From Haplodiscus bocki (taxonomy: Eukaryota), in assembly GCA_965655095.1 (NCBI GenBank), contig OZ296659.1, forward strand, positions 66,154,001-66,218,000: a stretch of DNA of 64,000 bases, written 5' to 3'. Position numbers and translations under genes: made by a program. The notes beneath the pieces were generated by a model. It saw only the letters and a program-made list of their open reading frames with translations, was not told where the DNA came from and did not search any database. Shown in pieces: positions 31,171 through 56,542 of the stretch (the first letter of the stretch is position 1; each line of letters opens with the position of its first letter).

Positions 31171-31177
31171 TGTGTAC
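31171..31177. other. Left target-site duplication TGTGTAC
   Basis: Matches TGTGCAC at 56536-56542 (6/7). Confidence 0.65.
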
Positions 31178-31400
31178 AGAAGCAGAAGTCGGAGTTGATC
31201 AGGTGGGGGAGGGGATGAAAAACCCGATGAAAAATGAAAAACTAGTGCTAGCCCACTCGAGCCGAGGGCCGAAAAAACGTCTTCCACGACCCCTGAGAGC
31301 TCCCGGACGTTTTTGGACCAGGTAGTACTCGATTCCGGTCGACTGAAAAAGTTTGAGTGTGGTTTTCTTGTGGTTGATTCTGATTGGCTGCGGACTTTTT
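31178..31400 (+). repeat. Left TIR of outer Polinton
   Basis: agaagcagaagtcggagttgatcagg pairs with the reverse complement of 56510-56535 (agtaatagatgtcggagctgatcagg). Confidence 0.85.
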
Positions 31401-31802
31401 TTGAGTTTTGGCCTGAATGTGAAAGTGCTGAAGAAAATAATAACATAGAGAACGATAGTTGGCACTGATTCAATAAAAACCATGAAGTCTTGCGATGAAA
31501 AAAAAGGAGTGGTGTAATTGATTCATTTTTGGCACTGCGAGACTTTTTCTGAAATTTTTTTGAAAATTTTCCGATGAAATTTTTGCGTTTTAGATGGTCG
31601 CCACGCGGACTAAGTTCTAAGTTTCAGAACGTGGAATATATTTGAAGCCTGCAGACTTTCTAAAACGCCTGCGGTTACTAACTTCACTTGGGATACTTTT
31701 GTGACTTAATGTTATGTAAAAAGTTTGTGCTAATGTATACAACAATTCAACAGAAGGTAGACAAGTCAACAAGCTCAAGATAGCAAAATGAAGTTCTTTG
31801 AT

Positions 31803-34800
31803 TCAAAAATTGAGAAGTTGGATGTAGATTTCATCTCCCTCTACAATTCTCATGGGATAAAATTGGGAAAATCTTTTCCTTAATTGATCGTATCTTGCAA
31901 CAGCGTTAATTTCTTTCCAGAAACCTTCATTTGCTGACGGAATTTCTACCGTTTCGTACAGAGCTCGAAGATATTTTTCAAGGGTTGCGTAACTGTCCTG
32001 CTCTAGAACACGTTTGTCGCAGCTTTTGCAAATAAATATAAACTTTAATCAAGCAACATCAAAACACCACTACATTTTGCTACAAGAACATAACAATTCC
32101 TCACATCTGAATTACTCTTTGAAGAGTCCAAGTTCTCCCTTGTCAAGTCTTCTGAGTCTGACACAACACGCTCGGGAAAAAACTTCCAGCTGCTTCGGTA
32201 ATGAATGTAACAGTGCAATCTTTTGATAGCAACCGCTCCCATTCTGCTTCCAATTCAGGCTCGATGCCATCTTCCAGCTCCTTCTCGGCAAGAGCGAGAT
32301 ACAGAGAACCAGTGTCCTTTCCCAAAAATTCGAACTTGTATACATCACTATCTTTCATGAGAGAATAGTAGTACAGTTCTAGCATTCGTTGTTTTGTACG
32401 TTGAAGAATAAAGAACCCGGCAATGATTGGCTCCTTGAGATCAGTATGTGTCTCGGCGAATTCAACTTCATTAAATGCATTGTTCACGTGATCCAGTTGT
32501 CTGAAATGTTCATTTCTGATTGCGGCGTTTTTTTTGCCACTGAAGTACTTGGTCAAAAACTTTCGGATGCGGACGATAATCTGCTGGTCGTTGAACCTGT
32601 TTTCTAGGAGTTCCATTGTCTCCGCAACAACACTGACCGTCGGAATCTTGTCAGTTTCACTTCTTGCCTCAACTGCTGACTAATCAAAGCTGTTGAAACC
32701 TTTCTATGGTGTACTCAAGAAAACGGTGTATCTAAGAACAAAAAGGACCCAATTCAAGTTGGAATTAAAAGAGAAGAGTGATCAGTTTACTGTTTTGTCA
32801 TGTGAAGCTCGAAATCAACATTTGCTTAAGTTCACACAACACTTCTTTTTCTTCGGCTTTGTTTCTGATTAGTTTCCACGATGTCATTCTTGCTAACTTC
32901 AACTAAGGTGTTCTTGAAGGTTGGCGCGAAGTTATGAAAAGCGGCTCTCAATTTTTCATGTAATTCAATGTTGCAGTGGACACAGCCGAATATATTTACT
33001 TCCTCTTTCTTGTAGGAGTTGGCATTCTGTAGGGGAACACCTGTGACGAAAACCTTCTCGGATATGGTTTTTGTTGGTGGTTGTCTTTTACAGTCTCCAC
33101 TTCTCACTCTCTCACATTTCGATGGCAGTGAAGCCAGTTTTCTGTATAAAACTTCGTCTCAAATGAATGAGCTGTCGCCAATTACTGCCACATTGAAAAT
33201 CTTCCTCAGTTACAGATGGACGTACTTCTAGGCAGTGACAACAGCGATACAAGCATCCCAATGCTACAAACACAGAATTGCAACGGGAGAAATCTCCATC
33301 AACACTGAAAAAGTCATACTGCTTGTCTGCGTGTTCTGTAGAAGTTTTCAACTTGACATTCGGGTCTTGTTCTTTATATACAAGAAATCACCTCGTTTCA
33401 AAGGCTACGGGTCTTGTTTAGTCGTGTCATGAAAACACCCATCTCCCACCCAAATGCGTATGGAGACCGGTCTGCATGGGTTCATTCGTCGCATAGGGGT
33501 AAGGTTGGCTGACGTCAATCCCAAAGGTTGATTCGCAAATGTTTGTTGTTTTCGAATGAAAGTTTCATCAACAAGTGCTTTTCGTGTGGAAATGAAAAAT
33601 GGGCCGACAATTTCTGGTGCAATTATCCCCAGAAGCTCCTCATCACACTCCGTGAAGAGATGGAAGTTTCCATGTGTATATTTATGCAGACAAATGCTGG
33701 CCAGGTTTGATGAAGTACAACGAAGCTCTAACAAATTGATATCTCTATTAATGTAAAAAGGATTGATTTTTTGCAGTACTTCCATAGTTGGAGGAACATC
33801 TTTTCTGTTTTATTGGAGCAAAATGTCATAAAACGAGCTCATTTGTTCCTGAGTCCGTGTTTGTTGAAAGTATTGATAATGTTTCTTCTTAAAATAGGGT
33901 AGGTTTGATAGTTTCAATTTCACAACAGTTTGTTCTCTGGTCTTTACGATTTTCAAAAACTTAACGTACACATTTTATTCTGCTTCAGGAACACTAGAGT
34001 TGCGAAATTTATTATAAAAAGCGCCAAATGGAGAAGTTCTGTTCTCCTGATTTTGTCAAGATGATCAACTTTTTCGTAGAGGAGGAATCATTTAATTTCT
34101 GAGGTTTTCCTTGTCTGCAGGAAAAAAACAAGACTTTTTGCTCCACCAAGAAAGGTCACTGGATCCATCAGCTCAGTTTCAACAAAAATTTAAAAAATTA
34201 AGGGGATGAATTGGTCTGTTTTCCTGATAACTGCAGGTTCATTATCTCGCTCGTTAACAAGATTGGGTACAGAAAAATATTGATCAAATTGATATCAAAT
34301 TTTGTACTGTTGAAACCAAACACAGATTAAACATTGCGGAAATGTTCTATCGACTCAACGAGCTAAAAGTAATGATTGTTTGATTTCTGTATGACTTGAG
34401 TACATGAAAAAATTTTGTTCTTGGAGCCTGATTGCCACATGTCAATTCTACTTGCTTGCTCCCATCGTTGTTGACGTTGAGTGCATTTATCCAAGATGTT
34501 TCCCAGTTTATTCTTCATCGATGTTTCAATATCACGGAACAAAAGTTTCGTTTATGCCTTGCCTTGTGATGCTAGACCTTTCATTGCTCCCTTAAAAGAG
34601 CCAACCAAGGGATGAGGGTAGAAGTTGCACAGCGAAAACGGTTCTTCCTCTAGGTTTGAGTGAATGAATATTGAAATCGATACATGCTTACGTATCCACG
34701 TTGCTGTTTCTCTATTTTTGAATGTTCCTTCTTGAAGGAAAATCCATTCCCAGTGGAATTTTGCTAGGTTTTTGACGAAAGTTTGCTTACTGGTGTACTT

Positions 34801-36120
34801 AACGCCGAAAGTGTCCAGCTTGACAATCAAAATTTCTCAAGCTTCATGTTTTACTCGTTTACTGCACCTGCTCAAAATTCGTTTTACTTTTCCCGTCTTT
34901 CAAAGAAAGTATCACAGGTGGGTTAACGAAACGCTTCAAAGTCAGCACTAAAAATTGTTAGATGCCAAAGTTTATTGTTGTATCTCAAAAACCGCTAAGT
35001 TTTTGTAATTTTTGAGGCAATTTGTCTGGCAAGTTCCCTGATAACATTCTCATTCACAATATCTAAATCAAAAAGTAAAACTCTGAGCATTAACAGATAC
35101 TCAACAACTAGATGCTCGAACAAAAGGACCCCATAGAGCTCGTTGGGACTGAGTCCATCCATTCCATTGATTGATAACATATCAAATTTTGAAATTCATT
35201 TTTCCAGCTAATGATGTCCGTGCAAAGGGAGAGCAAGAGCACAAAAAGCCGCAAATTTCCGACATATGGTTCTCTTGTGTTCCCTTCATACGTGAGACAG
35301 TTCATTGTACAGTTTCTCATTGAGGTTCGGGTGGGACAGCGTCATTGCAACTTATAGGTACGTCTTTGTGTGAAGCAACAAATTTGATAAAGTTTGTCCA
35401 GTTAAACGCTCTCAAGCTTTTTCATACCTTCTCCACTACATTACTGTACAACTCGTTGACGTCAGTTTTGTTGACAAGAGCCTCTAACCTTGCCGTGTCA
35501 AACATGGTGCACACAAGTTGTGACCGATCCAGCGGGATAATGTTTTCATGGGCGTAGACTTATCTGAATCTTCTATCCTATTTTTCTTTCAAAATGAACC
35601 CCAAAGCTACATTCGGTTCAACTGCCCATTTTAATTTGTTGAAAAACCAATCCAATTTTCCGTCCAATTCTTCAGCTTTGAAGTTTTCCTTTGCATAATT
35701 GATTACTTTGTGTCTAGCTTTTTCAAATTCAGATTTTTTGGGGAATTGTTGAGAAAAACCCAACTCCTCTTCAAAACCCCTATCATCAACTTCGTTAATT
35801 GAATCATGAAACTCAAGATTTGTTGTCTTAATAGGAAAACAAGAACGAGTGTCCTTAGGCTGTCGTAAAGCGTGAAATCCTGGAAACTCTTGATAACAAA
35901 TTTCACACTAGAAAGTAACGAAACGTTTTGGGGCGTCTTGCTTTTTAATAATACGAAAAGTGCAATCTTTTTTAGTTTTTATGGAGAATTTGGGACATTT
36001 GAAACAGAACAGTAGCCCAAATTAACTTCTTTCCTTGTGACGGCCAAGATTGATTCGTGTACTTTGGGTTACACAAATTTCGCACATAACTTCGTCGCTC
36101 CGGTTGAGTGAAGGCTTTTC
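31803..36120 (-). pseudogene. polB: pPolB with N-terminal C2H2 fingers and VSR-like insertion
   Basis: GFNSTKFDINLI (ExoII); GIDVSQPYPY (motif A); FSVDGDFSRCNSVFVALGCLY (VSR-like); EPIIAGFFILQ..RMLELYY; KDTGSLYLALAE (motif C). Confidence 0.92.
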
Positions 36121-36399
36121 AATTCTGGGAATTTTAAAAAATAGTCTGAATTGAACGTAAAAGCTGAAACAACATGACTGTACCCGTGCAAAAAAATGCG
36201 ATAAGTACGTAGCAAGAGTTACTCAAAACCTTCTACTGAAAAACAAAAAACACCGTTACAGAAAACAGCAGACAGAAAAGGAAAGACTAACAATAAAATG
36301 TCACAACGACCAAAAAGAGAGCTGTCAAATCATTTTCTTTTATCTGACAAACCAACTTTTTTAGAAGAAAAATTTAATTCAAGGGATGAGTCACACTGT

Positions 36400-36610
36400 C
36401 TCCGAAAATTTCTCAAGTGGAACAAGTTCTCTGTTTTTGGCGACAGACTTTCTGGAGAACTTGATCAAGTGGATTAGCAACCCCAGACAGCGTGTCTGAG
36501 AAAAAAATTCAAGTGGAAACGGTTCCCCGTTTGAGGAGACAGGTTATCTGCTCAGATTACTCAAGTGGAACAAAATCTCCTCATAAGGAGACAGCTTGTC
36601 TGAGCATTTA
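36400..36610 (+). repeat. Array of four ~52-bp tandem units
   Basis: tcaagtgg at 36413, 36465, 36509, 36561. Confidence 0.85.
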
Positions 36611-36899
36611 CTTTGTTTGCTTTGTTCAATTTGGTCTCAAATGTTAAAAAAAACACATACATTTCCAAACAAAAAACAAAAAATGAAATTCAGAAGTTGA
36701 AAGATTCCAATTCATGGAATCTTCGATGTGAGCTCATCCAGTGACCTAGTGAACCCATTGAGTTTTCAACCACCACAGCTTAGCTCCCCAATTTATTGAC
36801 AACAAAGAACAATTGAAACCTGATTGGCTTTAATAAAACCGATACCACCGATGAAACTCGCAGTCATAATCAAGCGCCTTTTCCTTGCAGCTATACTAC

Positions 36900-38497: not shown

Positions 38498-38800
38498 ATG
38501 GACCCAAGCAGGTATCAGGTGTCTGATCTGAACGAAGTTGAAGTCTACTGGCGAAACGATCAGCTGGTTGCAGACGCTGTTTTTAGACCAGGCATTGGTA
38601 CCACTTTTTCACCAACAGCGTTTGACAACTGAGCGATGGAAAGTTCAGCAAAAAACCCCATTCTGCTTGACGAAGAAGAAGACAAGGAGAACTTTCCTCC
38701 AACAACACTAGTCTCTGAGAGAACAACACGACCCCCTGCATTGTGGAGAAAGTGTCTATTTGGAAAAAGACTAGTAAAAATTCCTGTTCTGTTTTTGGAG
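38498..38800 (+). pseudogene. Acidic accessory ORF with SIM-like and KEN-box motifs
   Basis: NPILLDEEEDKENFPP; inverted copy at 47463-47792. Confidence 0.55.
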
Positions 38801-39619
38801 ATTTGTTTCTGTAATTTTTACAATGTATGTGTTTTATTATTAATAATAATTAATGTGTTTCATTTCACCAGAACTTTTTTCAAAAACTAGTCAGACGTTC
38901 GTGAGACAAAAGCAGTTTAAGTATCGATTTCTTTAATTTTACCAGTGGCGGCAAGTTTTTTCTTTAAACAAATTCATACAGAAAGAAAGTGGGACACCAT
39001 AGTGAAATCTAAAAGCGAAGTCCTTGCAAAAACGTGTACAAGAAGTATCCTTTGCACGGTGGTTATCGCAATTAGCTAGTTTTTTAAAGTTTTGTAGGTT
39101 GTAAGTGTACCTGGTGGTGAGGAGAAGAACCTTGTGAACACTACATATGGTGGGGCTACCTTAGATTTTAACTTCAAAAAACTTTTGAAACTTGATTCAA
39201 AACCTGACATCACCAGAACTTTTTTTAAGAATCTGGCACGGCGACAAATAGTGTATTCCAAATCTGACCAACCAAAAATTGTTAAAGTCAAGATTGAAAA
39301 TTTTTAATAAACCTTTGCTTGAAAAAGCACTAAAATTGCAAAACTCGACGTTTTCACGGAGTAAAGCCAGTCACAATGTGAACTTTCAATTGTGCATGTT
39401 TCTTCACCATCTGATTGCCCATAAAAATTCAATTCAAATTATGGCGCGTTGTAAGTTTTGTGGTTGATAATTTGAAGCGTTGTAAAGTATCAATTCAGAA
39501 GTTGAAGCGTTTTAAAGTTTCTGTTTCAAAATCCTGTTTTTTATAATTTTTTCAGGTTCTAGCTTAGAAATAACTGTCATAAAAGAAAAATGTGAGGAGT
39601 TCACAAAATATATCTACCT

Positions 39620-40400
39620 GATAATGGGTGAAGTTTGTTCACTTGTTGCTTTGTTTATGGTTTTGGGACAGATGATAGCTCTGATGACGGTTTTTTTGCA
39701 CTCCCAAAAAACGTCTTCATGTCACCTTGGAATGCATAAACTGCTTAGCTTTCGAAATATCATTTTTGAAAGTCCCTGATTTACTAGCATACATACCATT
39801 ACCATTGAGATAATCTATAGTTTTCCGTAAACCCAAGTCTTAGTTTGTTTGTTGTCTTTTTTTCAATTCTCTCTGCGGAGACTGATACTCCAGTTTGCGT
39901 CAATATTGACTTTTGGAAAAAAATCAAAGAATGTTTTCTTTAAATTTTCCTCGCGAGTGTCTTTTTCTCGATGCTCGGAATTCTGTCCTTTATTCCATTT
40001 CTTTGACTAGAAAAGACAACTTCTTGCATATAATTAAACAGTTGTCCTTTTTTGGCAAGAAAAATTTCACTGGATCGATACTTGTAGAGTGTAGAGAGAC
40101 AGTCCAGGGGTAGGTAGTTGGAACAGAAATCAACCAGTTTTCAAAGCAGTTCTTAAATGTCTCACACTACTTCAATGTGATATCTACAAATGGGTAGAAA
40201 GCACATCTGGTCAACGTTTCGAGAAAAACAGTAATCTTAACCCACAATGTACTTTCCAAATGTGTTTGCAGAAATAAAAAGACGGTTTTTTGAATAATTT
40301 GTACAAACGCTGGGAATCACTTGTAGCCTTACAGCTTCCATCTGATTGTTGAGTCGTTTTCTGAACAATTGAATCTGGAAAACAAGATGCTTTTACTCTT
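39620..40400 (-). other. Polinton internal segment, inverted homolog of 45930-46780
   Basis: cttgttttt(c)cagattcaa.tgttcagaa..cagatgg.agctgtaa shared in opposite orientation. Confidence 0.75.
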
Positions 40401-40569
40401 TGTACAAATCTACTAAAAAAAAAGAGGTTCCATATATGGGAATTTTATGTGACAATGACCAAAAAAGATGCCTTTACAGGAAACCAATTGCAGCTCCAAA
40501 ATCTTTCTTTAACTTTCAGTCACATAAAAAAAGAACTTCTTTCAGCTACCAGTGTTCTATGTCGTTCAC

Positions 40570-40880
40570 TCATAGCTCACAACACTACTACTTCCTTGGA
40601 AAAGCCTATTTGTACCAACTATGTGGACTTTGACAATTGTAAAGACAGAATTGAAGGTTTTTTTGGTCCAAACATATTTCCAATTAATTGGATGTACAAC
40701 TAAATGTTTTCAAGAAATATGACAACAATGATTTCCGACTGGTACAAAATGTTAAAATGGGAGAAGCAGTCTTCAACCAGATCATGCGATTCAGAAATCA
40801 GCTGGTCATTGCTTTAGAGAGCTTTGTTAGCGAGGAAAATTTGTCCCCAAGGTTGAGACCTAAAGTGTCCAAAGGCAATC
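40570..40880 (+). pseudogene. Possible PC4-like ssDNA-binding protein, truncated
   Basis: YVDF..LDVQLNVFKK..FRLVQNVKMGEAVFNQIMRF beta-beta-helix pattern. Confidence 0.35.
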
Positions 40881-40889
40881 GTCCAACCT

Positions 40890-41990
40890 AAATCGTCTTG
40901 AAAAGTCATTGCTTTCATTGTGGTAACCTAAAGGCGACAACTATCAGCAGCATCAATGTATACAAAACGCTGACCTCCTCCGAGTATTCTAACTTGTCTG
41001 ACATCAACTGTTTTATTTCAGAAACGATTTTCAGTTTATGATCCATTGAAGGCAGAGTTTGTATTCATCGCAATAGCAACCCGACAAACTGGAGCATTGT
41101 TGAAAGTGTATTTTTGAAAGAACTAGTTCTGTTTGACACGAATGATGAAAATCTTCGCAAGAGTTTCCAAATAGTTGAAATCCACAGGGGTGTTCATTCG
41201 TTTCTTGTGATAATCATCCTTGAGAACAAAACGACGAGTGTAAAATGAACAATCAACAATTCCGAGGCTAAAGTTTGGGTTGTCGCTAGTCATGTAGAGA
41301 TTAGGTCTGGGTCTGATTATTCGTAGCCCGACTTTCATATTTGGATTTAAAAATTCGGAAATGGAAAAAAGTCAACCACCAATTTACCATAGAATATGAA
41401 GCCATGGGGCCTGCTAAGAATTTTCGTTCTCCTTGTGAAAAAAGTTCCAACAAAACCGCTTCAGTAATTTCATAAGCAAATTCTTAAAAATCGTACCCTT
41501 CGCAGTGTAAAACTCTCTTGTAGTCAAAAATGGCCCTTTCAAAGTTTTTGGAAATGTATGATTTGTGAGCATACAATCCATTACAGTTGAACAATTGCTG
41601 ATTGTTGATGTACTTTTCAACATTGGGAAAACTCGAGTGCAAAAAGTTGTTTACGTGAGTAACTAGAAGAACTGGAACCTCTTGCTCCTCCAGCACTTCC
41701 TCATGCGCTTTGGCCTCTTCTTTGTGTTCCTTTTCAACTTCTTTGGTAATGTAAGTTTGGTAACCACGACCCTTGACAAATTTCAGCTCCAAAGCCAAAT
41801 AAGGTTGTCTCAAATCAACGTAATAGATCCGATCCGTTTCAATTTCAAACTCTATGTAAATTTCATCAAGTTAGGTAGTAGGATAAATTTTTTGTTCCTG
41901 AAACAACAAAACTTCGTCAACTACTAAGACTCTGCCTCCAAGGTTTCCAAAAACCGCCACAGAAGATTGGTACCGAAACCCGCTCGACAT
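40890..41990 (-). pseudogene. Polinton major capsid protein, 3' truncated
   Basis: IEFEI.TDRIYYVDLRQPYLALELK; HVNNFLHSSFPNVEKYINNQQLFNCNGLYAHKSYIS. Confidence 0.85.
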
Positions 41991-41997
41991 CATTATC

Positions 41998-42358
41998 GAG
42001 AAATGTCTAAAAGGTTGCGTCTTCGCGTCTGACTGGTTTGTTTTGCAGATTCTTTCGGAAACACTTTGCTTGCAACCTTTTTCCTGCCACCACAAGCCAA
42101 GAGTTATCTCAATCTTTGTCTTCCCACATTCTTTGCAGCTGTCTTGAAATTCTTTCTACCACTAACAACATCTGCAGTTTCAGGCAGACCGGATTCCAAC
42201 AAATCAGCACCCACTCAAGTTGCAGCTGGGACGCCATTTTAAGAAAAACTTGGAATTTCGGACCTTCCAATGACTTTTGCAAGTGTACCGAATCTCACTG
42301 CAGGTTGTCAACCAAACGTTTTTATCATTTTAAACGCTACTTGCCTTGAGGCAATCAT
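41998..42358 (-). pseudogene. Gly-motif amphipathic virion protein remnant (between minor and major capsid genes)
   Basis: FGTLAKVIGRSEIPSFS..VGADLLES; homolog of 52320-52730. Confidence 0.55.
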
Positions 42359-42371
42359 TTCGTAACGTCTT

Positions 42372-43135
42372 TTAGCTTAGCAGCAATTTTAGCAGTTTTT
42401 CGGCAACTACGAAGGCTGTTTTTTCACCGCTCGTGTGTCTCAAGTCAATGTGAAAACATTGAAAAGAGTTTTTGAGCAGCGGTCTGAATTGTAGGATACT
42501 AAAGGTCAGATAGTTGATGTACCGTCTAGCGGCTTTACACTTTCCAGCTTTGAGCTTTGACATGAAAGGAAAGCAACGCAGTATTCGGGCCATCATGATG
42601 CCAACAGTATTGTACTCATTCAGATTGGTATATCTCTTGAGAGGGTGTATGCAGACAATGTCAAAGGCAAAACTTTGTTTGTGAGCTCCTTTTCCTTCTC
42701 CAACTGCATTGCCAACAAAATTCCCGAAAACCTTCTCCAAGTCTGCACTAAAAGTGCAAGATCAGACCCTTCCTTTGCCACTTAACCTCGCTTTTCCGTT
42801 CTTCTAGACCTTTTGAATGTGATATAGTCTTTCTGTCATTGTGTCTCTCTTGGATGAGAGTGTTCATGGCCTTAACACTTTCTGTAATAGAAAGGTAAAG
42901 AGCAAGTTCCCGTTGAAAAAAAATCTGACCACTTTGACTTTTCTCAACAAAAACTACGAACCCTCACTGTTTGAGTTTTTTGAACGTTGACGGTTGAGAG
43001 TTTTCCAAGATTACAACCCCTCAACGACCGTCCAGATTCATAATCTCCGAAAAAAAAATGGTCAAAGCTGAGCGTATTGTCTGAGAAAAGTTGTGCAGAT
43101 GGGTTAAAAACCAACTTTATTGTAATAGACTTCAT
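42372..43135 (-). pseudogene. Polinton minor capsid (penton) protein
   Basis: MKSITIKLVFNPSAQLFSDNTLS; ILRCFPF; FRPLLKNSFQCFHIDLRHTSGE. Confidence 0.8.
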
Positions 43136-43191
43136 TGTTAAATGACCTTGGTCATCTCTTTTTGATAAACTTTTCCACGGATAACCTCATG

Positions 43192-43350: not shown

Positions 43351-43519
43351 GTAACGTCTTTTAGGTTGGAAATGAAGGTTGGAGGAATTTTTCGAATAAA
43401 AAAAACTGTTCCATGTCAAGACAAATGGTTAATGACGCGTAGAGTAAAGACTTTTTGGAGTTTTAGTCCCTTGTCAGATGTCAAAACGTCCCTCTTTTGC
43501 TTCCAAGTTTTATTTTTCG

Positions 43520-44360: not shown

Positions 44361-44709
44361 AGACTTCCTGATGGTTAAAGGTACCCAGAAGCACCACAAA
44401 AACTTCCCACCCGAAGAGTGGCTTCGTCACAAGTTTTTAAATGTTGAATTCCGGAAAAAAACCCAAAGTCAATCAACAACATCACAAAAGGTTGGCACGA
44501 AAACACAAATAGTTATCTGGAACACGTTTGACCCAAACAAGACCACTTTTTTCTCTCTTAACTTTTGAGTTCAAAGACAATTTCACCTACAATAAACTTA
44601 CCTAATTGGCCAATCATCTGACCTGTACGCTCAAAATCTCGATAAAAAACCTTGAATGAAAGTTTGCATATTTTTGAAAGATTTAAAGTCGTAGATACTG
44701 ACAATACAT

Positions 44710-45150
44710 TTCATCAAATAACTTCTAAGACTTTCAATGACGCATTATTCAGTTACCAAACATTTTTGCCTTGTGTTCTTGTGTCTGAATGGGTAACACA
44801 AGCAAATCCACATTTCTTCATCAACGAGATCTTGAACTATGGGACAGCCATGATATTCAAAAATTTCCACTTCTTCAACCAAAAAAAACTTCATGAATTT
44901 AGCACTTTTTTGATCTTTCTGCCGAATATTCATCCTTTCCACCTCTGGGAAGAATGTTGGTGAGCTCATTGTAGTCCAAACGTCCACTGTTCTACACACT
45001 TCCGTGCCAGTTTTTTGTGCAACAAACTGATTGCCTTTATGGTAGTACTTTTTTGGAGGACAAAATGAGTACCCCGGAACTATGCCATCAAAAAAAATAC
45101 CAACTCGTTAAGAACGTTTTTGTCTGCAAACTCAAAGTAAATTACAATGC
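44710..45150 (-). pseudogene. Polinton accessory protein, possible DEDD-like nuclease fold
   Basis: IVIYFEFADKNVLNEL..HGSV*NSGRLDY..VEIFEYHGCP..WICLCYPFRH. Confidence 0.5.
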
Positions 45151-46849
45151 CAGACTTACTGCTTCAAAAGTCGACAGAGTCAAAAATGGAAGGTAGAAAG
45201 TGTTTTACGTAAAGGTAAGAAAGTAGTCAAGTCAATCCAGTCAAGTGACTAAGCGAACATGAATTTCGTCTTCGTCCAATCTTGTAACAGTAGACAAGAC
45301 CTTTGCCACTATGTGCCCGCATTGCTCCAGCAGCATCATATAGTAATGCATATAGTCAAAATAGTTTGAAGTAAAAACTCAAAAAACGAATAACCAAAAC
45401 CAATGGATCCGCCATATTTACTTTTTTGCTCCATCTCATGTAAAGAAGATCTGGAGTTCCAACAAAAAAAGCACCTAGTAACAAGTTTTTCTAACACTAA
45501 TGTGTTCAGATGACAACTTTAACCCCCGGTACCAAAAGAATATGCGCCTTAGAAAGAAAACATCCATTTTTGACAAGGTTTGTTTTAATTATGGACAATT
45601 TTTGATCCCGTAAAGTGCACCGCTTGTAAAAAATGTCAAAATAGCTCAATAGATAAACTTGTTTTGTCAACAGGAACTGGTAATTTGTCACTTTTGGATC
45701 ATTTTCAATTTTTCGAGGTACCAATTGTATCGGTAACGGTGCGGAATATTATCGAAATTGTCTGTAGCAGTCTTTAAGTTTTAAGAAGTAATTAATTTTT
45801 TGTTAATGAAAGTCAAAGAATGATTTTGGAGTTGCAATTCGCTACTTGTGTACGCATCTTTTTTGGTCATTGTCACGTGACAATTCCATAAGTAGAACAA
45901 CTTTCTTCTTTTGGTACGTTTGAACGAAAAGTAAACGTACCTTGTTTTTCAGATTCAACTGTTCAGAACACAAGTCAACAAACAGATGGCAGCTGTAAAG
46001 TTACAAGGATCCCAGGCTTTTATAAAAATTTTTCAAAAACCAGTCTTTTTGTTTCTTGCAAAAATATATGAGGAACACATTTTGAGTAAGAAACACTGTA
46101 ATGTTCGAAACGATGAGAAAATGGGCTTCATAACCATTTTTAGATACCACAATCTACTAGTAAGAGATATTGAACGCTGCTACAAAAACTGCATGCTTTC
46201 CGTTTCAACTGGCAACACCTGGACTATCTCTGTACACTTTTTTTAGTACCATTTCAATAGCAAAATTGTTGTCAAGAGTGGAAAACTCTTTGATAATCAG
46301 CAGGGGTAGTTCATTGCAACCACCAAAACAAACGAGTGAACAAAAGCCCAGCATCGCGAAAATAAGACTCTCGAGGAAAAAGAACAAAAACATTTGTTCA
46401 GCTCCTTCCAAAAGACTAAATCGACGCAAATTAGTGGATCATTCTCTGCAGACAAAATTAAACAAAATAGAAAGATTAAAATCGATTTAATATTGATAAA
46501 AAATGCAGATTGTTTTCTAGATGGTCATGGTAATTACACTAATAATTTAGTATCTTTTGAAACAAAATCTTTGCAAATTAACCAAAATCTGAACTCCAAA
46601 ATAAAATTTATAAATCAATTGGGAGTGCAAATGATAAAGTCTTCACACCCATCCAAAACCCAATTGCCATGAAAAAGCAAAAACCAAGAAGAGAGTACCA
46701 AATGTCAGACAAACACATGCCATACACCCGTGAGAAAAGTTTTATCACAAGCCATTTTCAATTAAGTTTTTCCCTGTTGTTGGTAACACTTTAATTCAAT
46801 GAGAATCCGAAAAGACTCTTTGAAAATCAGACTTAGAATTGAAAATTTT

Positions 46850-47140
46850 ACTTCGTGCCAGATTTTGTATTAAAACATTTACAGCGTCTCAGATTTTAAT
46901 CATAAAAGAAGACAACGCGTCGGATTTTGAATTGAAGATTCTTTGACATGTTACAGTTTGAAAAACGTTTGCATTCGAAGAAACACGTTTTGGTTCATTT
47001 TATTCCGTGAAAACGACATGTTTTGCATTTTGATCTGTTGTATTCTAAAAAGCACGATTTTGGATTAAAAACTTTAAAACATGTCAGATTTTGAATTAAA
47101 AAAAAAACACAACGCGTTAGATTATGAGTTGAAAAAAACA
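46850..47140. repeat. Degenerate ~30-bp array (acaacgcgtcagattttgaatt-like)
   Basis: Repeated cagatttt/acgcgt units; mirrored at ~39150-39530. Confidence 0.55.
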
Positions 47141-49489
47141 ACTGGTCAGTTTTTGAACCAAAATCTTTTCACCTTTTTTAAAAACAATTTTCAACCTAGT
47201 TCAACCACGTGTGCTTTTCATATCTTTTCAATCCACATAACCATTTTCATTTACGGCTCGCAAAATCTTCGTCAACTGGATAAGAGCATTTCCCAGAGTT
47301 CAAACAAAAATTCTTGTACCGTTTTTGCCAGGACGTTGACCTCTGATTTCGCTACGGTGCCCCATTTTACTCTGTACTGGCCTGATATTTGCAAAAACTT
47401 GCCGCCACTAGTAAAATTAAAGATATTGATACTCAAACTGGTTTTGTCTCACACATGTCTCACTAGTTTTTGAAAAAGGTTATGGTAAAAAGAAACACGT
47501 TGAATATTATTTCTATTAGAACACATGAATGGTCTAACTTACTAAACCAAACTTCTAAAAACAGAACAGGAAATTTTACTAGTCTTTTTCCAAATAGACA
47601 CTTTCTCCACAATGCAGGGGGTCGTGTTGTTCTCTCAGAGACTAGTGTTGTTGGAGGAAAGTTCTCCTTGTCCTCTTCTTCGTCAAGCAGAATGGGGTTT
47701 TTTGCTGAACTTTCCATCGCTCAGTTGTCAAACGCTGTTGGTGAAAAAATGGTACCAATGCCTGGTCTAAAGACAGCGTCTACAACCAGCTGATATTTTT
47801 CCAAAGTCGAAAGACCAATCTTTACCATCGGTGGAGACAGAGAAATTTATGCTGCTTTACTTTAGAATAAAAACATAAAAAACGAGACTGGAAATGACCC
47901 TTTGGTTGACTGTATCAGACAATGGGAAATCGACACGATTAAGCCATAAACTGAATGATTTTCGACTTCGACAGGCTCGGGTGTGACTGATTGCATTTTG
48001 TGGAAAAAAATTTCTTCAAAAAAGCATAGTTTTTTCTTTTTCGTAATCCTGACTCGTTTTTTCGGAAAAACAAAATGTCCTATCACTTCGAAACAACATA
48101 TTTGTTGGTTTTCGGTCTCTTAAAAGAATTTTTAACCTTGCAGCCTCCTTTGCGTTGGGGACATTCGTATCAACGTTTACCTTTCTTTCACCATATATGG
48201 ACCTAGATGCAATTTTGTCTCTAATAGTACTTGCCAGGACAATAAATATCTGCAAGATTAACTCGAATTGACTTTTGTGTTCTTCCAAGATTTTATATCC
48301 CCTGGCCACACATCAAGAGAAATGATGTTTATTTTTTAATCAAAGTGAATATTGCGGACTCAACATGTCATCGCGCATTGCGGACATAAAAAATCGCTTC
48401 TGCCGAAGGATTGAAAAATCTCTTGTGCAAGCAAAGTTTCCCGGAACACGTTTTGTTTGGACAGTACACATCCCCGTTAACATCATTATTGCTACTGTCA
48501 TAGCAACAATCAGGATCAGATATGCTACACATCATGAATGCTCTCAATTCTTTCACACTTATTTGCAACGTAATATCAATTCTAGTAGAGATGGTAAATT
48601 TCCCGATTATAAGGTTAACATTTTCGGTAGGACCAAATTGATTGCCGTGTGTTTCAAACCTTCCGATAGAAGAAACGCAAGAAATGTTCTTTCCAAATCG
48701 GAACGTTAAACGAATTTGTCTACTTGGATGTTCAATGATTTCGTTGTACTAATGAGCAAAGAGAATGTCTTTCACTTGGTAGATCCAATGTCAACTTTGG
48801 GTTTTGGTAGTGAAATTTGTCAAAAAATGCTCGCTCCATCAAAAGTTCTGAGGAAATTAGGCGAACAGTCCACCAAAAAACTGAAGTGTCTTTTGGATAT
48901 TTCAACTGTTTCTTGGATGATATGACTCTGCTGTGTGTTTAGGTCGCAAAATCGGAACAACTTGATTGCAAAAGATTTTGCATTGGAGCTTTTGCTAGCG
49001 CGTACTATTCGGTGCAGGGACCGGGCAACTTCAAAAAAGTTGTGGTAAAATTAACTGTTTACGTCAGTTATGTCCAAAAACTCTTCTCGTATTTCGTCGT
49101 CAAATGAATGAAGTTTGAAAAAGCTGGGAATTTGCTTTTTGACAAGCATCATGAACTTTTAGTCAATGAATTTTGCGAAAACATTATACTGGTGGTAAAG
49201 CGGTAAAAACGATGCGGATTTCGAAATTTGACCAATCAGGCACAAATAATTCTTTCAGATAGTTAAAAAAGAGGTCCAGACGCAGTGGTTAAAAGTTTTC
49301 ATTGGTTCCCTAAGTCATTATGAAGTCTATTGTTGATAATTCCATGGATCGGAAGCTTTTAACTTTTACACTACACAGTCTGTTTAAAAACCAAAATCTG
49401 TTCCCTATACGGAAGTCTTTTTGACTCAGAGTTGAGACCTGAAAAAAAAACAAAACAAACAACATGAATTTCTCTGAAAAGCTGAACAG

Positions 49490-49640
49490 GGAAACTTGTT
49501 CCACTTGAGTAATTTTCGCGGACCAGTTGTCTCCTTATCAGGGGAACTTGTTCCATTTGAGTAATTTTATCAGACAACCTGTCGCTTTATCGGGGGAGTT
49601 CCTCCCACTTGAGTAATTTTCTCGGGCAAGCCGTCTCATT
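49490..49640 (-). repeat. Three 52-bp tandem units, inverted counterpart of 36400-36610
   Basis: cca(c/t)ttgag at 49501, 49553, 49605. Confidence 0.85.
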
Positions 49641-49889
49641 TCTTCAATTAGATTTTTATTTACACACAGTCGGTTTACAAAAAGAAAAGCAATGATTGAT
49701 TGCTCTTGTGATATTTCGTTTTATGGTTAGTAGGTGCCAATATGGTTGTTGTTTCTTTTTATGGAAGTTTTCTTGTATGAGAAAAGTTTTTTGATAATAC
49801 TTGATACAAATTTTTTCGCCCTCTTTCAATTCCATTGCTACAGTCAAGTTGCATCAATCTTCACGTTTGTTTCAGATCGTTCTTCTAAA

Positions 49890-51240
49890 CAATCACTATC
49901 GAAATTCTTTCGTTGTTCCGGAGAGAAGAAATTACATGTGAAACTTCTGGTACACAAACTACGAGAAACAAACTTGTACGGCACAAGAAGAGATCCTCAG
50001 CTAGAAAATTGTTTTGTTCCCAGTGTTCCAATTTCTCCACTACTTCACAAGTTGACTTGAATTATCATATTGATAAAAAACACAACAACCCAAAACCTGT
50101 CGTTACTTTCAAGTGTAAGCTTTGTTATCAAAAGTTTGCAGCATTTTACGCTTTAAGTCAACATAAAAACACCCAACATAGCTCCTCTAACAAGACTGCA
50201 AACGTTGATCCGGAGGATAACATCAACGAAATTGATGATGCGAATCTTGAAAGGAAATTGCGCTCAAGTCAACATTTCTTGGTGGACTCTGAGATTGAAA
50301 GGGCGAGACACAAAGTCTTCAATTACGCAGTAGAAGCATTAAGCGAAACAATCCTGAATGAGAAATTTGAAAATTTTTTCAACAATTCAAATTGTGCAGC
50401 GAAACTGAATCTGGTCTTTGGGTTCACTTTGAAAAATAAAGAAGATGGAGGATTCAGAAACTTTTAGGCGCACAATAACAAAACCCTGCTGGACCGATTG
50501 AAACTGGTTGCACCAGGGACAATTTTTTAAAACTAAAAGATAATCTCAACAAAACTGACTTCATCGAGTCGTGTAGTAGAGAAAGAATGAACACAAAGTG
50601 GAGGTTCAACACGTTATTAAAACTGAGCGTTTTCGCAGCTCTTCACGAGGACATTCCTATAGGGGGCAAGAGCGCAGTTTTACCGAACCCTTATTGAAAA
50701 ACGGTAGAACCAACTGTCTCAGGTATGAAGAAAAAACAAAACAAACATATAAAGATAACTTGTGCCTTTTTCGTGCGCTTGCTCTCCATTTGCATGGCAC
50801 TCAACATCTGGAAGAAGAAACTTCAAAATTGTTCATTTTCTTCATGAAATTAAAACGATGGATTGAGCGCCAGCCACTTTCAAGCAGTCCAAACGAGCGA
50901 TGTTTTTATTGTTGAAGATCTGTTAACCGTCGACATTCTGTTGTATGATATAGATTTTGTGGATGGGAACTATATCGGAGAAATTGATAGACGAAGTGTT
51001 CAGAAATACGAAAATACTGAACGACTGCTAAGATACAACAACCACATATGTTAGGTGAACAACATTAATGCAGTCTTCCAATAATTTCGCTTCCGTCATT
51101 GTTAAACTTTTGAACAGAACATACATTCTGGAGCGATAATCAAAAACATGCAGTGAAAGAGTGAAAAAACACTTTTCCAAGGAAGTTATATCAAATGAGA
51201 GAAACTCTATTTGACAAACTGGACTCTTTCAGAATCAAGT
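49890..51240 (+). pseudogene. polB: pPolB N-terminal part (C2H2 fingers); catalytic region deleted
   Basis: CSQC..LNYHIDKKH, CKLC..LSQHKNTQH; DNLCLFRALALHLHG; LLRYNNHIC; homolog of 34850-36120. Confidence 0.85.
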
Positions 51241-51244
51241 GCAC

Positions 51245-51485
51245 GAAAGAACCAATCAAAAATGAGCACAAATGACCCTAATAAACTTCGTCAGGCAATC
51301 AGAATCGAGTATTACGTTACCCGAGTCCTCAGCCAATCAGAAATGAGCATTACGTCACCCGAGAGTTCCCAGCCAGGGTGGATGTCAACTCTCAGCTCTC
51401 AGCCCGAGTTGGCTCCCTATAGCCTATCTTAAAACATGGGGACCTTTGCCTCCACCCCGTCAGCTCTCCCCCCGCTTCTACTACT
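51245..51485 (-). repeat. TIR of inner Polinton
   Basis: CCAAT boxes, aacatgggg motif shared with the right TIR, ends CTACTACT. Confidence 0.85.
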
Positions 51486-51540
51486 ATGAGGTTATCCGTG
51501 GTAAAGTTTTTCAAAAAGAGATGATCAAAATCATTTAACA

Positions 51541-52300
51541 ATGGAGTCTATCACAAACGAGTTGGTATCTAACCCATCTGCACAACTATTCCCAGACAGT
51601 ACGTTCAGCTCTAACAAATACTTTTTTCGGAAGTACTGAATCTGGAGGGTCGATGAGAAGTTATAACCCACTAAACATCTCAACTGTTAACGTACTAAAA
51701 AATCAAAGAGTGAGCGTTCATAATTTTTCTTCAGAGAAAGTCAAAGCGGTCAGGACTTTTTTCACAGGGAACTTGCTCTTTACCTTTCTTTTACACGAAG
51801 TGTTAAGGTCATGAACACTCTCATCCAAGAAGGACAAAATGACTTGAAAACTATATCACCTTCAGAAATTTTAGAAGATCGGAAAAAAAAGCGAAGTTAA
51901 GTGGCGAAAGAAGGGCCTGATCTTGCATTTTTAGTACGGATTTGGAGAAGGTATTCGGAAATAATGTTGACAATGAAGTTCGAGAGAAAAAAGGGACCTC
52001 ACAAACAAAATTTTGCTCACGACAATGTCTGCATACATACTCTCATGATATTAACGAACCCGATTGAGGACAATATTGTTGGCATCATGATGGCCCGAAT
52101 ACTGCGTTGCTTTCCTTTCATTTCAAAGCTCAAAGCTGGAAAGTGTAAAGCTGCTAGACGGTACATCAACGACCTTTAGTAACCTACAATAAAGACCGCT
52201 GCCCAAAAACTCTTTTCAAAGTTTTCACATTGACTTGAGACACACGAGCGTTGAAGAAACAGCTTTCGTAGTTGCAGAAAAATTCCAATATTTGCTGCTA
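51541..52300 (+). pseudogene. Minor capsid (penton) protein, preceded by the last ~50 bp of integrase
   Basis: MESITNELVSNPSAQLFPDSTFSS..LNLEG; upstream EVIRGK tail. Confidence 0.8.
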
Positions 52301-52319
52301 CGCTAAAAGATGTTACGAA

Positions 52320-52730
52320 ATGGTTGCTTCAAGACAAGTAGTGATTCAAATAATAAAAACTGTTCGTTGACAACCTGCAGTGGGATTCGCTACACTTGCA
52401 AAAGTTAATCGAAGGACCGAAGTTCCAAGTTTTCCTAAAAATGGCGTCCCAGCTGCAACATGAGTGGGTGCTGATTTATTGAAACCGCTCTGCCAGAAAC
52501 TGCAGATGTTGTTAGTGGCAGAAGGAATATCAAGGCAACTGCAAAGAGTGTGGGAAGACATTTTGATAAGAACAGTTGGGTATAGCTGGCAGGAAACGGC
52601 AGTGAGCCAGAGGCAGAAGGGAACCGTAAGCGTAAGGGAAGTAAAAAACCAGGCAAGCAGAATCCTTTCAACAAGATCTGCAGAACAAATCAGTCGGTCG
52701 TGAAAAAACAGTTTCTACAAACACTTCTCA
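52320..52730 (+). pseudogene. Gly-motif amphipathic virion protein remnant
   Basis: MVASRQVVI..GFATLAKVNRRTEVP..GADLLKP. Confidence 0.55.
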
Positions 52731-52736
52731 TTGACC

Positions 52737-54070
52737 ATGTCAAAAAACCTTCGGTACCAACCTCTTGTAGCATATTTCGGAAATCAAACAGGGAAAGTCG
52801 CTGTAGTTATTGATTTCTTGTCGTCCCACGGACAAGAAATTTATCCTATTACCTCACTCCATGATATCTGAATAGAGTTTGAATTTCAAACGGATCGGAC
52901 TTACTACATAGATCTGAGACAGGCGTACTAGTCTTTGAAACTGAAATTTGTCAAAGGTTGTGGTTACGAAAATTACAGTACCAAAGGAAAAAAAGAGCAC
53001 AAAGAAGAAGCAAAAGCGCATGAGGAAACGATGGAGAACGCGGAGGAAGCGCAAGAGCCTCCAGTTCCTCTCGTTACTCATGTGAACAACATTTGGCATT
53101 TTTTTCCAATGCTGATGTGTGCATTCACAATCAGCATTTTAACAACTCAGATGGACTCCATGCGCACACATTTAACATTTCGAGCAACTTCAAGCGTTGC
53201 ATCTCTGAAAACAAGGGTATTTTGCACTGAGAGAGCACAAACACTGAGGATTTTCTTGATGGCAATAAGAAAGGGCCTTCGTCAGAACTTTTTGTCTAAG
53301 GAGAATGAAGATGCTTAGCAAACCCGATGGCTTCATGTTGTATGGTCAATTAGGGGTTTTTTTACTCCATTTCTGAAATTCTTCATCCAAAGACGACAAT
53401 TATGCAAAGACTAATCAGAGCCAGATCTAATTTCTACAAGTTTAGCAACAACCCCAGCGTTAGTCTCGGAACTGTTTATTGTTCACTTTACACTCGTCGT
53501 ATTGCTCTCAAGAAAAAATATCGCAATGATCGAATGAACACCCCTGTGGAATTCGAAGAAAAGGAAATTCTTTCAAAGAATATCGTCATTCCTGCCAGAG
53601 AAAACTAGTTCACTCAAGATGGTATTTTCAACGATGCTCCGTTTCGGCGGATTGCTGTTGCAACGAATACAAGCACTGTATTCAGTGGATCATACACTGC
53701 AAACCCTTCCTGGTATCAACAATTTGATATCAAACAGATTGGAATACTCAAAGGAGATCGGTCAATCGCTCAACTTGCTGCTGCTGATAATTGTTGCTTT
53801 TTTGTTAAGACAATGAAAGCAATGAACTTCCAAGATGATATCTTCTCATTTCCAATTGATCAGTTCAGAGACGACTATGTACCAATGTTTGACTTGACTT
53901 CGATGCAAGATGCTACTGAAAAACGTGATTACCCAGAACTAGTTGGAAAGTCACCGAGTCTAGAGCTAAACTTTACTTTTCCTCTAGAAAACGTTACTGA
54001 TCTCCTTGTATTGGGAGCGAACGTCATCAGTTGCAGTTGACCAAATTGGTAAGGTTGAAAAAAATCTAAA
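52737..54070 (+). pseudogene. Polinton major capsid protein
   Basis: EFEFQTDRTYYIDLRQ; THVNNI; MFDLTSMQD..LELNFTFPLENVT. Confidence 0.85.
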
Positions 54071-55166
54071 ATGGATAATGTTTCTGTCTAGCAAATAGTC
54101 AACCGTTTTCCACAGCTCAAGTATCAGTACCGTTGTTCTTTTCCCTCTGACGATGTTCCAACTCCTGACAATTACACGTTTTCCATTATGAATACCGAAG
54201 CCGGCATTATGCAAATCTACACCTGTAAAGGATTGTATGCGCACAAAACTTACATTTCCAACAAATTCAAGGGGATCATCTCTGAGTACAAGGGAGTTTC
54301 ACACCGCGAAGGGTACGACTATGAAGAAGTTCCTGATGAAAATATGGCAGCGGCTTTGTCTGAATTTTTTTGCACAAGGCGAATGGAAACGCTAGAGAGA
54401 CCCGATGGCTTCATGTTGCCTGGTAAACTGTATGTTGCCTTTGTCCTCTTCTGGACTTCAAGAGCCAAAATTTAAAAAAAAGCTACAATTAAAAAGAGCC
54501 AGAACCATTTTTTGTCATGATTAGCGACAAACTCAACGATAGTCTAAGAAATGTTGATTTTTCCCTTTACACTCGTCGTATTGCTCTCAAGAAAGATTAT
54601 CGCAAGAAAAATAGTCATGCTTGCAAATACGTTCGTAGAGTTCATATTTTTGAAGACTCTAGCAGAAACTTTAATTTTCGCCTCCAGACAAAACCAATTC
54701 ATTCGAAAAAAAAAACAAATTTTTACAAGGCTCCAGCTACTCGGACTGCTATAGCAAGGATTGCAACTCTGCATTCACTGGATTGTCCATTGAAAGTTCA
54801 ATCTGGTATAAAAAAGCTGATCGAAGGCAAATAAAAGAACACAAAGATTGTCAACTACTCGAAAAAAATTGTGCTGCTAATAATTATTGCCTATACGTAA
54901 CGAAAATGAAAGCAACGAACTTTCAAGATGATATCCCTTCGATTTTAGTTGACAATATCAAAAACCACTACTATCTAATGTATGATTTGACTTGAAAACA
55001 AATTGCTATTGAAAATTTTCATTACCCAGAACTGTTTAAAGAGTCACTGAGGCTGGAGCTAAACTTTAATTTTCCTCAAGAACACGTTACTGAAATCATT
55101 TTTTTCGGAAAACGAGCGTCTTTGATCGCAGTTGACAAGCTTGGTGTTGTTGGGAAGAGTTTCTAA
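54071..55166 (+). pseudogene. Protease 5' fragment fused to duplicated major capsid 3' part
   Basis: FPSDDVP..IMNT joins QIYTCKGLYAHKTYISN at ~54211. Confidence 0.8.
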
Positions 55167-55167
55167 A

Positions 55168-55547
55168 CTGAATAATTTTTCTCTCCAACGAAAAATCAAC
55201 CATGGGCCGCTACTCAAATACCTGTACTTTGGCTCTTTCCCTCTGACTACGTACCAATTCTTCCCAGTGAGACCTTTGCCATTTTAACTATGCAGCCCTG
55301 TAAAATGTCTTGATAACATTGGATGATATTTGCAAAATCTCGTAAAACAATATGTTTTGCAGACTCTTTCGGAAGTGAAATGTACTATTTCCTCTTGCCG
55401 TACTACAAGCAGATCATGCCAGAATCACGACAGTCCAGTCCCAGCGTTTGCGGGTTCTGCACGATTAATGCAGTTTTTCACCTATTCAAGTTCCGCCAGG
55501 AAGGAAAAACCAGAGTTCAGGATGTTAATGTAATTTTTCATTACTAA
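55168..55547 (+). pseudogene. Adenain-like cysteine protease
   Basis: HWMIFA..FADSFG..QSSPSVCGFC (H-D-Q-C order). Confidence 0.85.
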
Positions 55548-56329
55548 CTCTAACAAAGAATCTGTTCTCTTCAATGTAAAGGTGCAGCCTTTACAATGTA
55601 CTATCAACTGTACTCTCTAATGAACTTGTCTTAACTTCAAATCAATCTATTTGAATATCATTAAGCCAAAACAGGACGAGCAGAAGCAAAAAAGGCTGGC
55701 AGTTTTTTCCAAGGCCGGTAATTTCTTTCCTTAGTCGTTTTTTTCGTTATGCTCTTTCCATATATGCTATATTGTAATGGGTAGATTCTGCAACATATTT
55801 TAACAAAAACTTCTTCTGCCTTCTTACTGTCAAGTTGCTACCACCTGTACGTTTGTTTTAGACTGTTCTACTCAATTATTCATCCACGGGCGTCACTGGG
55901 GTATAACCTATCCTAAAACTTTACCAGACTTTTCTATATCTTATTATTTTGCCGAACAATACACTACCTTAACAAATTGCTGGAATATAACCCATTTTAT
56001 TAAATTGTCGGACTACCTTTTCGGACAGCACCAGGTCAAAACAGTATCCTCGGGCGTAATAGTTAACCCCAAAGGTGAGGAAATTTCCGCAGGCTTCAAA
56101 ACTAGTCCACTCGTTGCTCGCTTGCTGCCCAAACCAATTCGTTGCAAAAACTTCAAACAACTTCTCGAAATGGTCTCACAATGCCGAAAATGAGTCACTA
56201 AGCTCACTTCCTATCTTCACACCTCACAAAGCCTGCAAACTACACTAATTTATTGCTGATTACCAATCCCTATCTTAATCTGCTCCCTAACAGTCTCGAG
56301 TTTAGCCCAAAACTCAAAAGTTGTCATCA

Positions 56330-56535
56330 GTCAATCATAATCGACCACAAAAAACACTTAGGCTTCATCAGCCAATCAGAATCCATTGTTACGTCTTCCA
56401 AAAACACCTGAGGGCTCCCGGCTACGATGGAAGACACTTCTCAGCACTCGGCTCCACTAGGTTGGCCAAAGGCTATTTTAACACATGGGGTCTTCAAACG
56501 TCCTCCCCTCCTGATCAGCTCCGACATCTATTACT
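56330..56535 (-). repeat. Right TIR of outer Polinton
   Basis: cctgatcagctccgacatctattact terminus; CCAAT box. Confidence 0.85.
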
Positions 56536-56542
56536 TGTGCAC
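56536..56542. other. Right target-site duplication TGTGCAC
   Basis: Matches 31171-31177 (6/7). Confidence 0.65.

Follow-up and report, generated by a model that had tools for sequence, protein, structure and literature searches.

Organisation of the split retroelement

The window analysed here, a stretch of 64 kb, contains on its minus strand the remains of a Gypsy-like retroelement (Gypsy-2) that is interrupted by an insert of 25,358 nt (31178-56535). The parts of the retroelement on either side of the insert are as follows.

27729-28364, minus strand: integrase relic (H2C2 zinc-binding region and core); two Pfam matches, both below the curated cut-off
29346-29624, minus strand: reverse transcriptase relic; translated match to 12719-12997 (E 1.8e-7)
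30250-31170, minus strand: 3' part of the pol leader, aspartic protease relic and following pol (phmmer, tblastn)
56543-56830, minus strand: 5' part of the pol leader (matches to P0040 and P0015)
56893-58083, minus strand: gag relic with two decayed zinc knuckles (tblastn of P0001, E 1e-46)

Gag, protease, reverse transcriptase and integrase follow one another in this order along the minus strand. The gag relic was identified through P0001, a relative of 500 amino acids with a CCHC knuckle (zf-CCHC) that aligns to 58083-56893, in agreement with the sequence-only reading, which had placed a same-strand Gypsy gag to the right of the insert. This relative also gave a weak match to DUF1759 (E 0.006), a family known from Bel/Pao elements. 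The Gypsy protease proposed to the left of the insert was likewise recovered on the minus strand, as the frame there has 74 relatives by phmmer, and gag-asp_proteas was present on two of the three long relatives scanned (P0004 and P0027; P0002 showed no family). Its catalytic Asp codon lies at 30958-30960, and a word-index search with this frame returned nothing among the longer proteins. The stretches left of the protease were all weak matches: Integrase_H2C2 at 28071-28364 (Pfam, E 1.8e-4), rve at 27729-28067 (E 0.034) and the reverse transcriptase relic, which gave no direct Pfam match and was recognised through 12719-12997, a stretch overlapping an RVT_1 match (E 0.0045). An RNase H of Gypsy-2 was not detected on its own. 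Gypsy-1 (9-17 kb) was considered as a sister of Gypsy-2 and set aside as too distant, with one translated match.

The insert interrupts the pol leader; the last gag match (56893) lies ~350 nt ahead of this point and the catalytic Asp codon ~210 nt beyond it. The earlier claim that the element was split between gag and protease was thus right in the order of the genes, but the cut lies inside the leader and not at the gag/protease border. A slippery-like heptamer was read from the sequence of the leader at 56818-56824; the hairpin behind it was not significant (z -1.57).

Searches for an LTR pair of Gypsy-2 with blastn, nhmmer and local alignment found none, and between 58100-61300 and 20077-27700 no pair of repeats stood clearly above shuffles. 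Among the run contigs (four runs from two samples of one study), depth climbs in the last bin covered and unique contigs stop at 58503, so that a repeat, perhaps but not necessarily the 5' LTR, begins near this position. As the LTR pair was not found, the element is filed as a Gypsy-like relic that probably worked like a Gypsy element, an assignment made on gene content and order.

Ends of the insert and target-site duplication

Self-comparison of the window gave an inverted pair at 31184-31578 and 56529-56138 (63% over 397 nt), which could be extended to the full outer terminal inverted repeats (TIRs).

31171-31177, plus strand: target-site duplication, left copy (6 of 7 alike to 56536-56542)
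31178-31728, plus strand: left outer TIR, adjoining the 3' end of the copy A polymerase (TIR alignments)
56012-56535, minus strand: right outer TIR (TIR alignments)
56536-56542, plus strand: target-site duplication, right copy (6 of 7 alike to 31171-31177)

The extended pair aligned at 61.5% over 564 columns (E 1e-37), which bears out the paired TIRs that had been read at 31178 and 56535. With a length of ~550 nt, 62% alike and with AG/AGT-type ends, they are Polinton-like; the end hexamers agree with the Polinton motif in 4 of 6 letters on the left and 5 of 6 on the right. The matching flanks also stood, as a target duplication of 7 nt with 6 alike, for which chance is ~0.002 at one fixed length and register. 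A 6-nt duplication directly at both outer ends was tried and rejected, since the letters do not match. A TIR-bounded element of Polinton type has integrated into the pol leader of the Gypsy-like element.

Continuity of the flanks across the insert

According to the sequence-only reading, removal of the insert would restore the order LTR-gag-pol. Continuity was assessed by scoring the left and the right flank each on its own. Residues 5-35 of P0040 match 56629-56537 at 48% (E 7e-7 against the flank of 765 nt), a match that stops at the target duplication, and residues 43-130 match 31155-30886. Similarly, residues 4-27 of P0015 match 56748-56677 and residues 94-162 match the left flank; P0015, P0054 and P0011 are collinear over both flanks like P0040, with spacing correct within a few residues. 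The duplication itself encodes Val-His in both flanks, and this pair is present once in P0040 and P0015.

In an unbiased form of the test, 21 of the 74 relatives were picked by left-flank score and leader length, and their leaders were compared with 1046 background tiles. On the right flank P0040 and P0015 outscored every tile, a further three (P0011, P0025 and P0054) fell in the top 1% (5-7 tiles reached their right-flank score), and the remaining 16 of the 21 gave no clear right-flank signal; the leader is fast-evolving. When all tiles of the window were ranked by summed score, the first two places went to the right flank, minus strand. A pooled profile of the leaders of 25 relatives recovered the left flank (iE 2e-30) and did not find the right flank (iE 4.5). 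At the right junction, variant letters on both sides are carried by one contig of the second sample (same depth and same end in the distance-to-end columns), and in the region of the left junction (27500-33500) the best run contains 0.92 of the sampled words.

Continuity of gag with pol was therefore recovered, but the LTR of the proposed restored element was not found. Because of the target duplication and the relatives that run across the junction, the retroelement preceded the Polinton insert, as had been claimed, and this is the sole order fixed here.

Gene content of the insert

Pfam was run on 298 stop-free frames (298 of the 428 frames of at least 55 amino acids) and on 18 read-through frames, and no match reached a curated cut-off. 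As Pfam alone gave no names, the insert could be named only through relatives. The route was provided by the ATPase frame, which has 1014 relatives (PF04665 on 8 of the 120 listed) and led to the near-whole relative L004, a metagenome contig (JAAUYE010122783.1) with integrase, ATPase, protease and zinc-finger matches. Pieces of the insert were then mapped with the ORFs of L004 by tblastn and phmmer; this reference has a different gene order and is not a full-length close family member. The insert was resolved into three decayed and deleted Polinton pieces, A (minus strand, 31178 to ~45780), B (plus strand, 45783-51485) and C (plus strand, 51486-56535), so that the two-Polinton composite of the earlier reading gave way to three pieces.

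31824-35147, minus strand: copy A, relic of a protein-primed DNA polymerase B (tblastn of the 1402-aa ORF of L004, E to 1e-47)
35854-36096, minus strand: copy A, C2H2 zinc-finger ORF that precedes the polymerase (phmmer with the L004 ORF, iE 1.4e-4)
40901-41894, minus strand: copy A, relic of the major capsid gene without its 3' end (tblastn of the 422-aa ORF of L004, E 8e-34)
43432-44457, minus strand: copy A, packaging ATPase relic (relatives with PF04665; tblastn 47-61%)
45783-51244, plus strand: copy B, inverted homologue of A 40541-34793 (self-comparison, L004 ORF matches)
49898-50197, plus strand: copy B, zinc-finger ORF (L004 ORF match)
50234-51244, plus strand: copy B, 5' part of the polymerase (L004 ORF match)
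51252-51485, minus strand: third TIR with intact (ACT)2 end, no partner found (TIR profile and alignment)
51486-54214, plus strand: copy C, two small genes, major capsid gene (52800-54016) and protease start (54068-54214) (L004 ORFs)
54215-55499, plus strand: copy C, tandem second capsid 3' part and adenovirus-type protease (55227-55499), a 66% direct repeat
55753-55875, plus strand: copy C, remnant of the stretch immediately preceding the zinc-finger and polymerase genes (aligns to 49754-49889)

Copy A reads ATPase, two small genes, capsid, middle block, zinc finger, polymerase and TIR; copy B reads middle block, zinc finger, 5' part of the polymerase and the TIR with the intact end; copy C reads small genes, capsid, protease, the tandem second capsid/protease piece, the 120-nt relic and TIR. 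The polymerase is named through L004, whose 1402-aa ORF scores 0.96 to DNA_pol_B_2 clusters (Atlas) and gave no polymerase match in Pfam or PDB; the three read-through frames of 31800-33601 gave no direct Pfam polymerase match either. The zinc-finger ORF of L004 carries Pfam zf-C2H2, and its protease ORF (Peptidase_C5, E 9e-4) matches the 55227-55499 region of copy C at iE 1.4e-6. The capsid genes of copies A and C are homologous, and the capsid fragment 53609-54037 scores 0.95-0.96 to double-jelly-roll capsid clusters, with a recognition value under threshold. The relic at 55753-55875 aligns to 49754-49889 with a score of 61, against a maximum of 44 in 30 shuffles (E 8e-6), and its match to copy A was not above shuffles. 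A weak match between 55611-55674 and 31759-31696 (E 0.02) was set aside.

Packaging ATPase, major capsid protein and maturation protease are thus present as relics, as is the protein-primed polymerase through L004. The retroviral-type integrase of L004 (rve, E 8e-11) found no match in the insert, for which L004 is a distant reference. In place of one open core gene set between one TIR pair, the insert holds three capsid and two polymerase relics, and its longest stop-free frame is 192 amino acids. PDB sequence searches gave nothing useful, and neither the capsid fragment nor the ATPase had a relative among the viral contigs. Since the integrase was not found, the insert is filed not as an intact Polinton/Maverick but as a Polinton-derived defective relic that worked like a Polinton.

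A third TIR and the order of the Polinton copies

The insert contains only three TIRs, all on the polymerase side, and its outer arms face away from each other. The polymerase-side reading of the copy C TIR rests on the single 120-nt relic at 55753-55875. The third TIR, which ends at 51485, agrees with the Polinton end motif in all 6 letters. A profile of the three TIRs found no fourth, and the left end of copy B is without one; the hexamer right of the third TIR recurs three times in 31178-51485, never beside a TIR. The bounded inner Polinton that had been proposed, which should show two TIRs and its own target duplication, was accordingly reduced to one further TIR with neither partner nor duplication. 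Because the right end of B is clean, it is likely that B entered C; this entry is not dated, and nesting alone cannot place B before or after the landing in Gypsy-2.

Copies A, B and C could not be separated in age by TIR distance or stop density. Over the first ~100 nt, TIR matches were 63 for left-right, 65 for inner-right and 58 for inner-left, which does not set the outer pair apart from the pairings with the third TIR, and all pieces carry 0.8-1.8 stops per 100 aligned codons, a low estimate in that only well-aligned columns were counted. Differences between copies were flat over codon positions in five of six comparisons (p 0.25-0.97), including the A-C capsid (82/72/71, p 0.62), with a slight third-position excess in the A-B polymerase (p 0.02, uncorrected); most of the divergence, being flat over codon positions, is neutral decay. 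Such flat differences equally fit copies of one template or separate insertions of near-identical active elements.

These data bear on the simplest account, in which one outer Polinton (31178-56535) entered Gypsy-2, one inner Polinton followed later, and nothing more happened. Its outer ends and target duplication are real, and the third TIR stops cleanly at copy C. Contig depth in run X1 was also higher on the bins with the third TIR (~59,000) than on the outer right TIR (~3,000), as might be seen for a younger subfamily, but these bins also contain non-TIR sequence. However, without B, A (minus) would stand opposite C (plus), both carrying a capsid gene, and this does not make one normal element; B has no left TIR or duplication, and the three-way TIR distances and stop densities do not mark it as younger. 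We therefore regard this account as unlikely. With three pieces, an unpartnered third TIR and similar TIR identities and stop densities, the earlier order of outer and then inner Polinton is not fixed.

Family abundance and support for the assembly

Between 45,000 and 52,000 contigs per run fell on 38700-58600, mostly at 85-95% identity, and summed depth, 7-88 on gag, mostly exceeded 10,000 in the Polinton part. The Polinton family is therefore very abundant and its sister copies abound, while gag is near single-copy at the 85-95% identity level.

Comparison of A with B also revealed a tract of near identity.

38605-38779, plus strand: 175-nt tract with one mismatch to 47574-47748 (inverted), against a background of ~65% (A-B comparison)

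Identity between A and B rises from ~65% up to this tract, which is likely to be a recent conversion or crossover between inverted copies, and possibly an assembly or polishing patch; it points to ectopic exchange at the locus itself.

Such a patch, the very high copy number and the B|C joint at 51485, which is without a bridging contig among those listed, could suggest that the inner arrangement arose in part from mis-assembly of a high-copy repeat. Against this, the copies are 60-85% alike and so far from the level of collapse, a run contig crosses the A|B joint (45310-45878) without a difference, and contigs of unique depth run over A, B and C with 0-2 differences. The variant letters on either side of the right junction, moreover, share one second-sample contig. 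An artefact was therefore considered very improbable. Among the run joints listed, none skips B or C.

Origin of the composite insert

The explanation that we favour, and consider probable though far from certain, is a nest of sister Polinton copies that were reshaped by ectopic recombination and deletion inside the Gypsy-like element. It would begin with the integration, evident from the 7-nt target duplication, of a Polinton-family element into the pol leader of the resident retrotransposon. Further copies of the same abundant family would then have ended up within or alongside it, one or more of them in opposite orientation; the pieces A (minus), B (plus) and C (plus) are observed, and we infer that they arrived as separate insertions. 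The ends that are now absent, the integrase and parts of the polymerase may subsequently have been lost through ectopic recombination between same-direction TIRs and through ordinary deletions, so that the outermost ends are both polymerase-side. Neutral decay of all pieces would have completed the process; the locus is a dead fossil. Counting against nested copies, this series calls for three or more insertions or duplications together with several deletions. None of these steps was seen directly, and B lacks a left end and a target duplication.

Alternatively, an inverted Polinton with two arms and two polymerase-side ends may have integrated as one unit, with B added before or after. It could have arisen as a copy-back or end-duplicated genome, through template switching during protein-primed replication, or from two neighbours excised by their outer TIRs. 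The outermost TIRs are indeed both polymerase-side (A directly, C through the 55753-55875 relic) and share one target duplication, the flat A-C capsid differences are in keeping with it, and by reasoning, inversions between homologous blocks cannot alter the orientation of the outer arms. However, A-C identity is uneven (62% in the TIR, 73% in the capsid and 85% in the neighbouring genes), the same layout can be reached by the known steps of nesting and TIR-TIR recombination, and only a single locus is at hand. A two-armed origin thus appears improbable to us, and nested, reshaped sister copies are preferred.

As it stands, the locus is an ordinary nesting of mobile elements and of little significance, as elements nest in repeat-rich genomes and this example is dead. 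It is a clean old marker that the Polinton family was active after the Gypsy lineage, with signs of ectopic exchange between Polinton copies. A two-armed integrant, if true, would preserve in fossil form a defective Polinton replication product of copy-back type, and would offer Polintons a means of carrying cargo in composite form. To our knowledge Polinton replication intermediates have not been seen directly, and the layout with two same ends would therefore gain weight if it recurred elsewhere with its own target duplications.

Comparison with known systems

Ty3/Gypsy elements carry gag with CCHC knuckles followed by protease, reverse transcriptase and integrase on one strand. Gypsy-2 resembles them in having these genes in order on one strand, with knuckles in gag, and differs in that no LTR pair was found, all frames are broken and the insert splits it.

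The proteins of the locus appear to resemble elements of acoel flatworm genomes. One acoel genome is described as 28.2% Gypsy and 4.5% Maverick (PMC6451197). For any genome of this kind, target size alone would lead one to expect Polintons landing in Gypsy elements. In the titles and abstract openings searched, with few subscription papers and no supplements, neither a Polinton inside a Gypsy element nor a two-armed Polinton was encountered, which does not prove their absence.

Polintons are described with TIRs of 100-1500 nt and target duplications of 5-8 nt (10.1101/2023.08.22.554363), or with (AGT)2//(ACT)2 ends and 6-nt duplications (PMC8097293), and most genomic copies in animals as degraded (10.1101/2023.08.22.554363; PMC8097293). 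Measured against these accounts, the insert is like animal Polintons/Mavericks in its TIRs and duplication, which are within range, its (AGT)2//(ACT)2-type ends and its relics of polymerase B, ATPase, capsid and protease. It is unlike them in having three partial copies in one TIR-bounded block, two of them facing outwards, and in its 7-nt duplication, where 6 nt is usual; moreover, no integrase was found and no gene is intact. Nesting of retrotransposons within Polinton-like viruses and virophages has been described (PMC12220804); those cases likewise combine a DNA virus-like element and a retrotransposon, one disabling the other, whereas here the Polinton is the invader and is animal-type, ancient and dead.

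The relative L004 shares with the insert the ATPase (45% by tblastn), capsid, protease, polymerase, zinc-finger and three further ORFs. In L004, however, an integrase lies between the ATPase and the capsid block and the polymerase faces that block, whereas copy A has ~260 nt where L004 has ~1.4 kb (the place of the integrase) and its polymerase runs in the same direction as the capsid gene.

Tracts of raised identity between Polinton pieces

Comparison of the three decayed Polinton pieces within the insert, A (minus strand), B and C (both plus), revealed that A and B carry inverted copies of a 175-nt tract (38605-38779 and 47574-47748) differing by a single mismatch, while elsewhere the two pieces are about 65% alike. 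Identity tapers toward the polymerase side of this tract, which may have arisen by gene conversion or may mark the breakpoint of an inversion. Positions 42080-43190 of A and 51486-52596 of C share 85% identity as against 73% in the adjoining capsid gene, and this stretch is possibly an older conversion tract.

Upstream of its zinc-finger and polymerase genes, piece B contains three 52-nt tandem units (49482-49640), and matching units were also present in A (36385-36612). Self-comparison of the window revealed a further tandem duplication of about 450 nt at 6312-7222, with copies 84% alike.

Gypsy-like relics and the right junction

A second, distant Gypsy-like relic was recognised from a match to the gag relative P0001 together with Pfam hits to RT and RNase H.

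about 9400-15500, plus strand: second Gypsy-like relic, distant (gag match, RT and RNase H hits)
9806-10180, plus strand: gag of this relic (P0001 match)

The longest stop-free frame in the window (343 aa, 18166-19194, plus strand) matched no family in a Pfam scan, and a gap of 200 N follows shortly after it (19877-20076). The stretch 23826-23936 (minus strand), far downstream of the Gypsy-2 integrase, aligned with the C-terminal part of the pol relative P0016 (57%, E 1e-6).

In Gypsy-2, the relic cut by the insert, a slippery-like heptamer (56818-56824, minus strand) lies in phase with the gag frame and is followed after 7 nt by a short palindrome; folding behind the heptamer was tested and was not significant. 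CCAAT-box and TATA-like motifs occur upstream of gag at 58500-58700 (minus strand), where read depth also climbs. This motif region appears LTR-like, and no partner repeat for it was found. In the relative P0066, the gag N-terminal stretch passes directly into the protease leader (against window 57951-57733), a layout that resembles an internally deleted sister element. At the right junction (56464-56562), one contig of the second sample carried 8 variant letters within 100 nt; insert-carrying haplotypes are strongly different here.

Metagenome relatives

Two near-identical, largely open Polinton-type elements, L003 and L004, were found on two metagenome contigs (L004 on JAAUYE010122783.1). 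In contrast to the Polinton family of the window, their genes are arranged in a different order.
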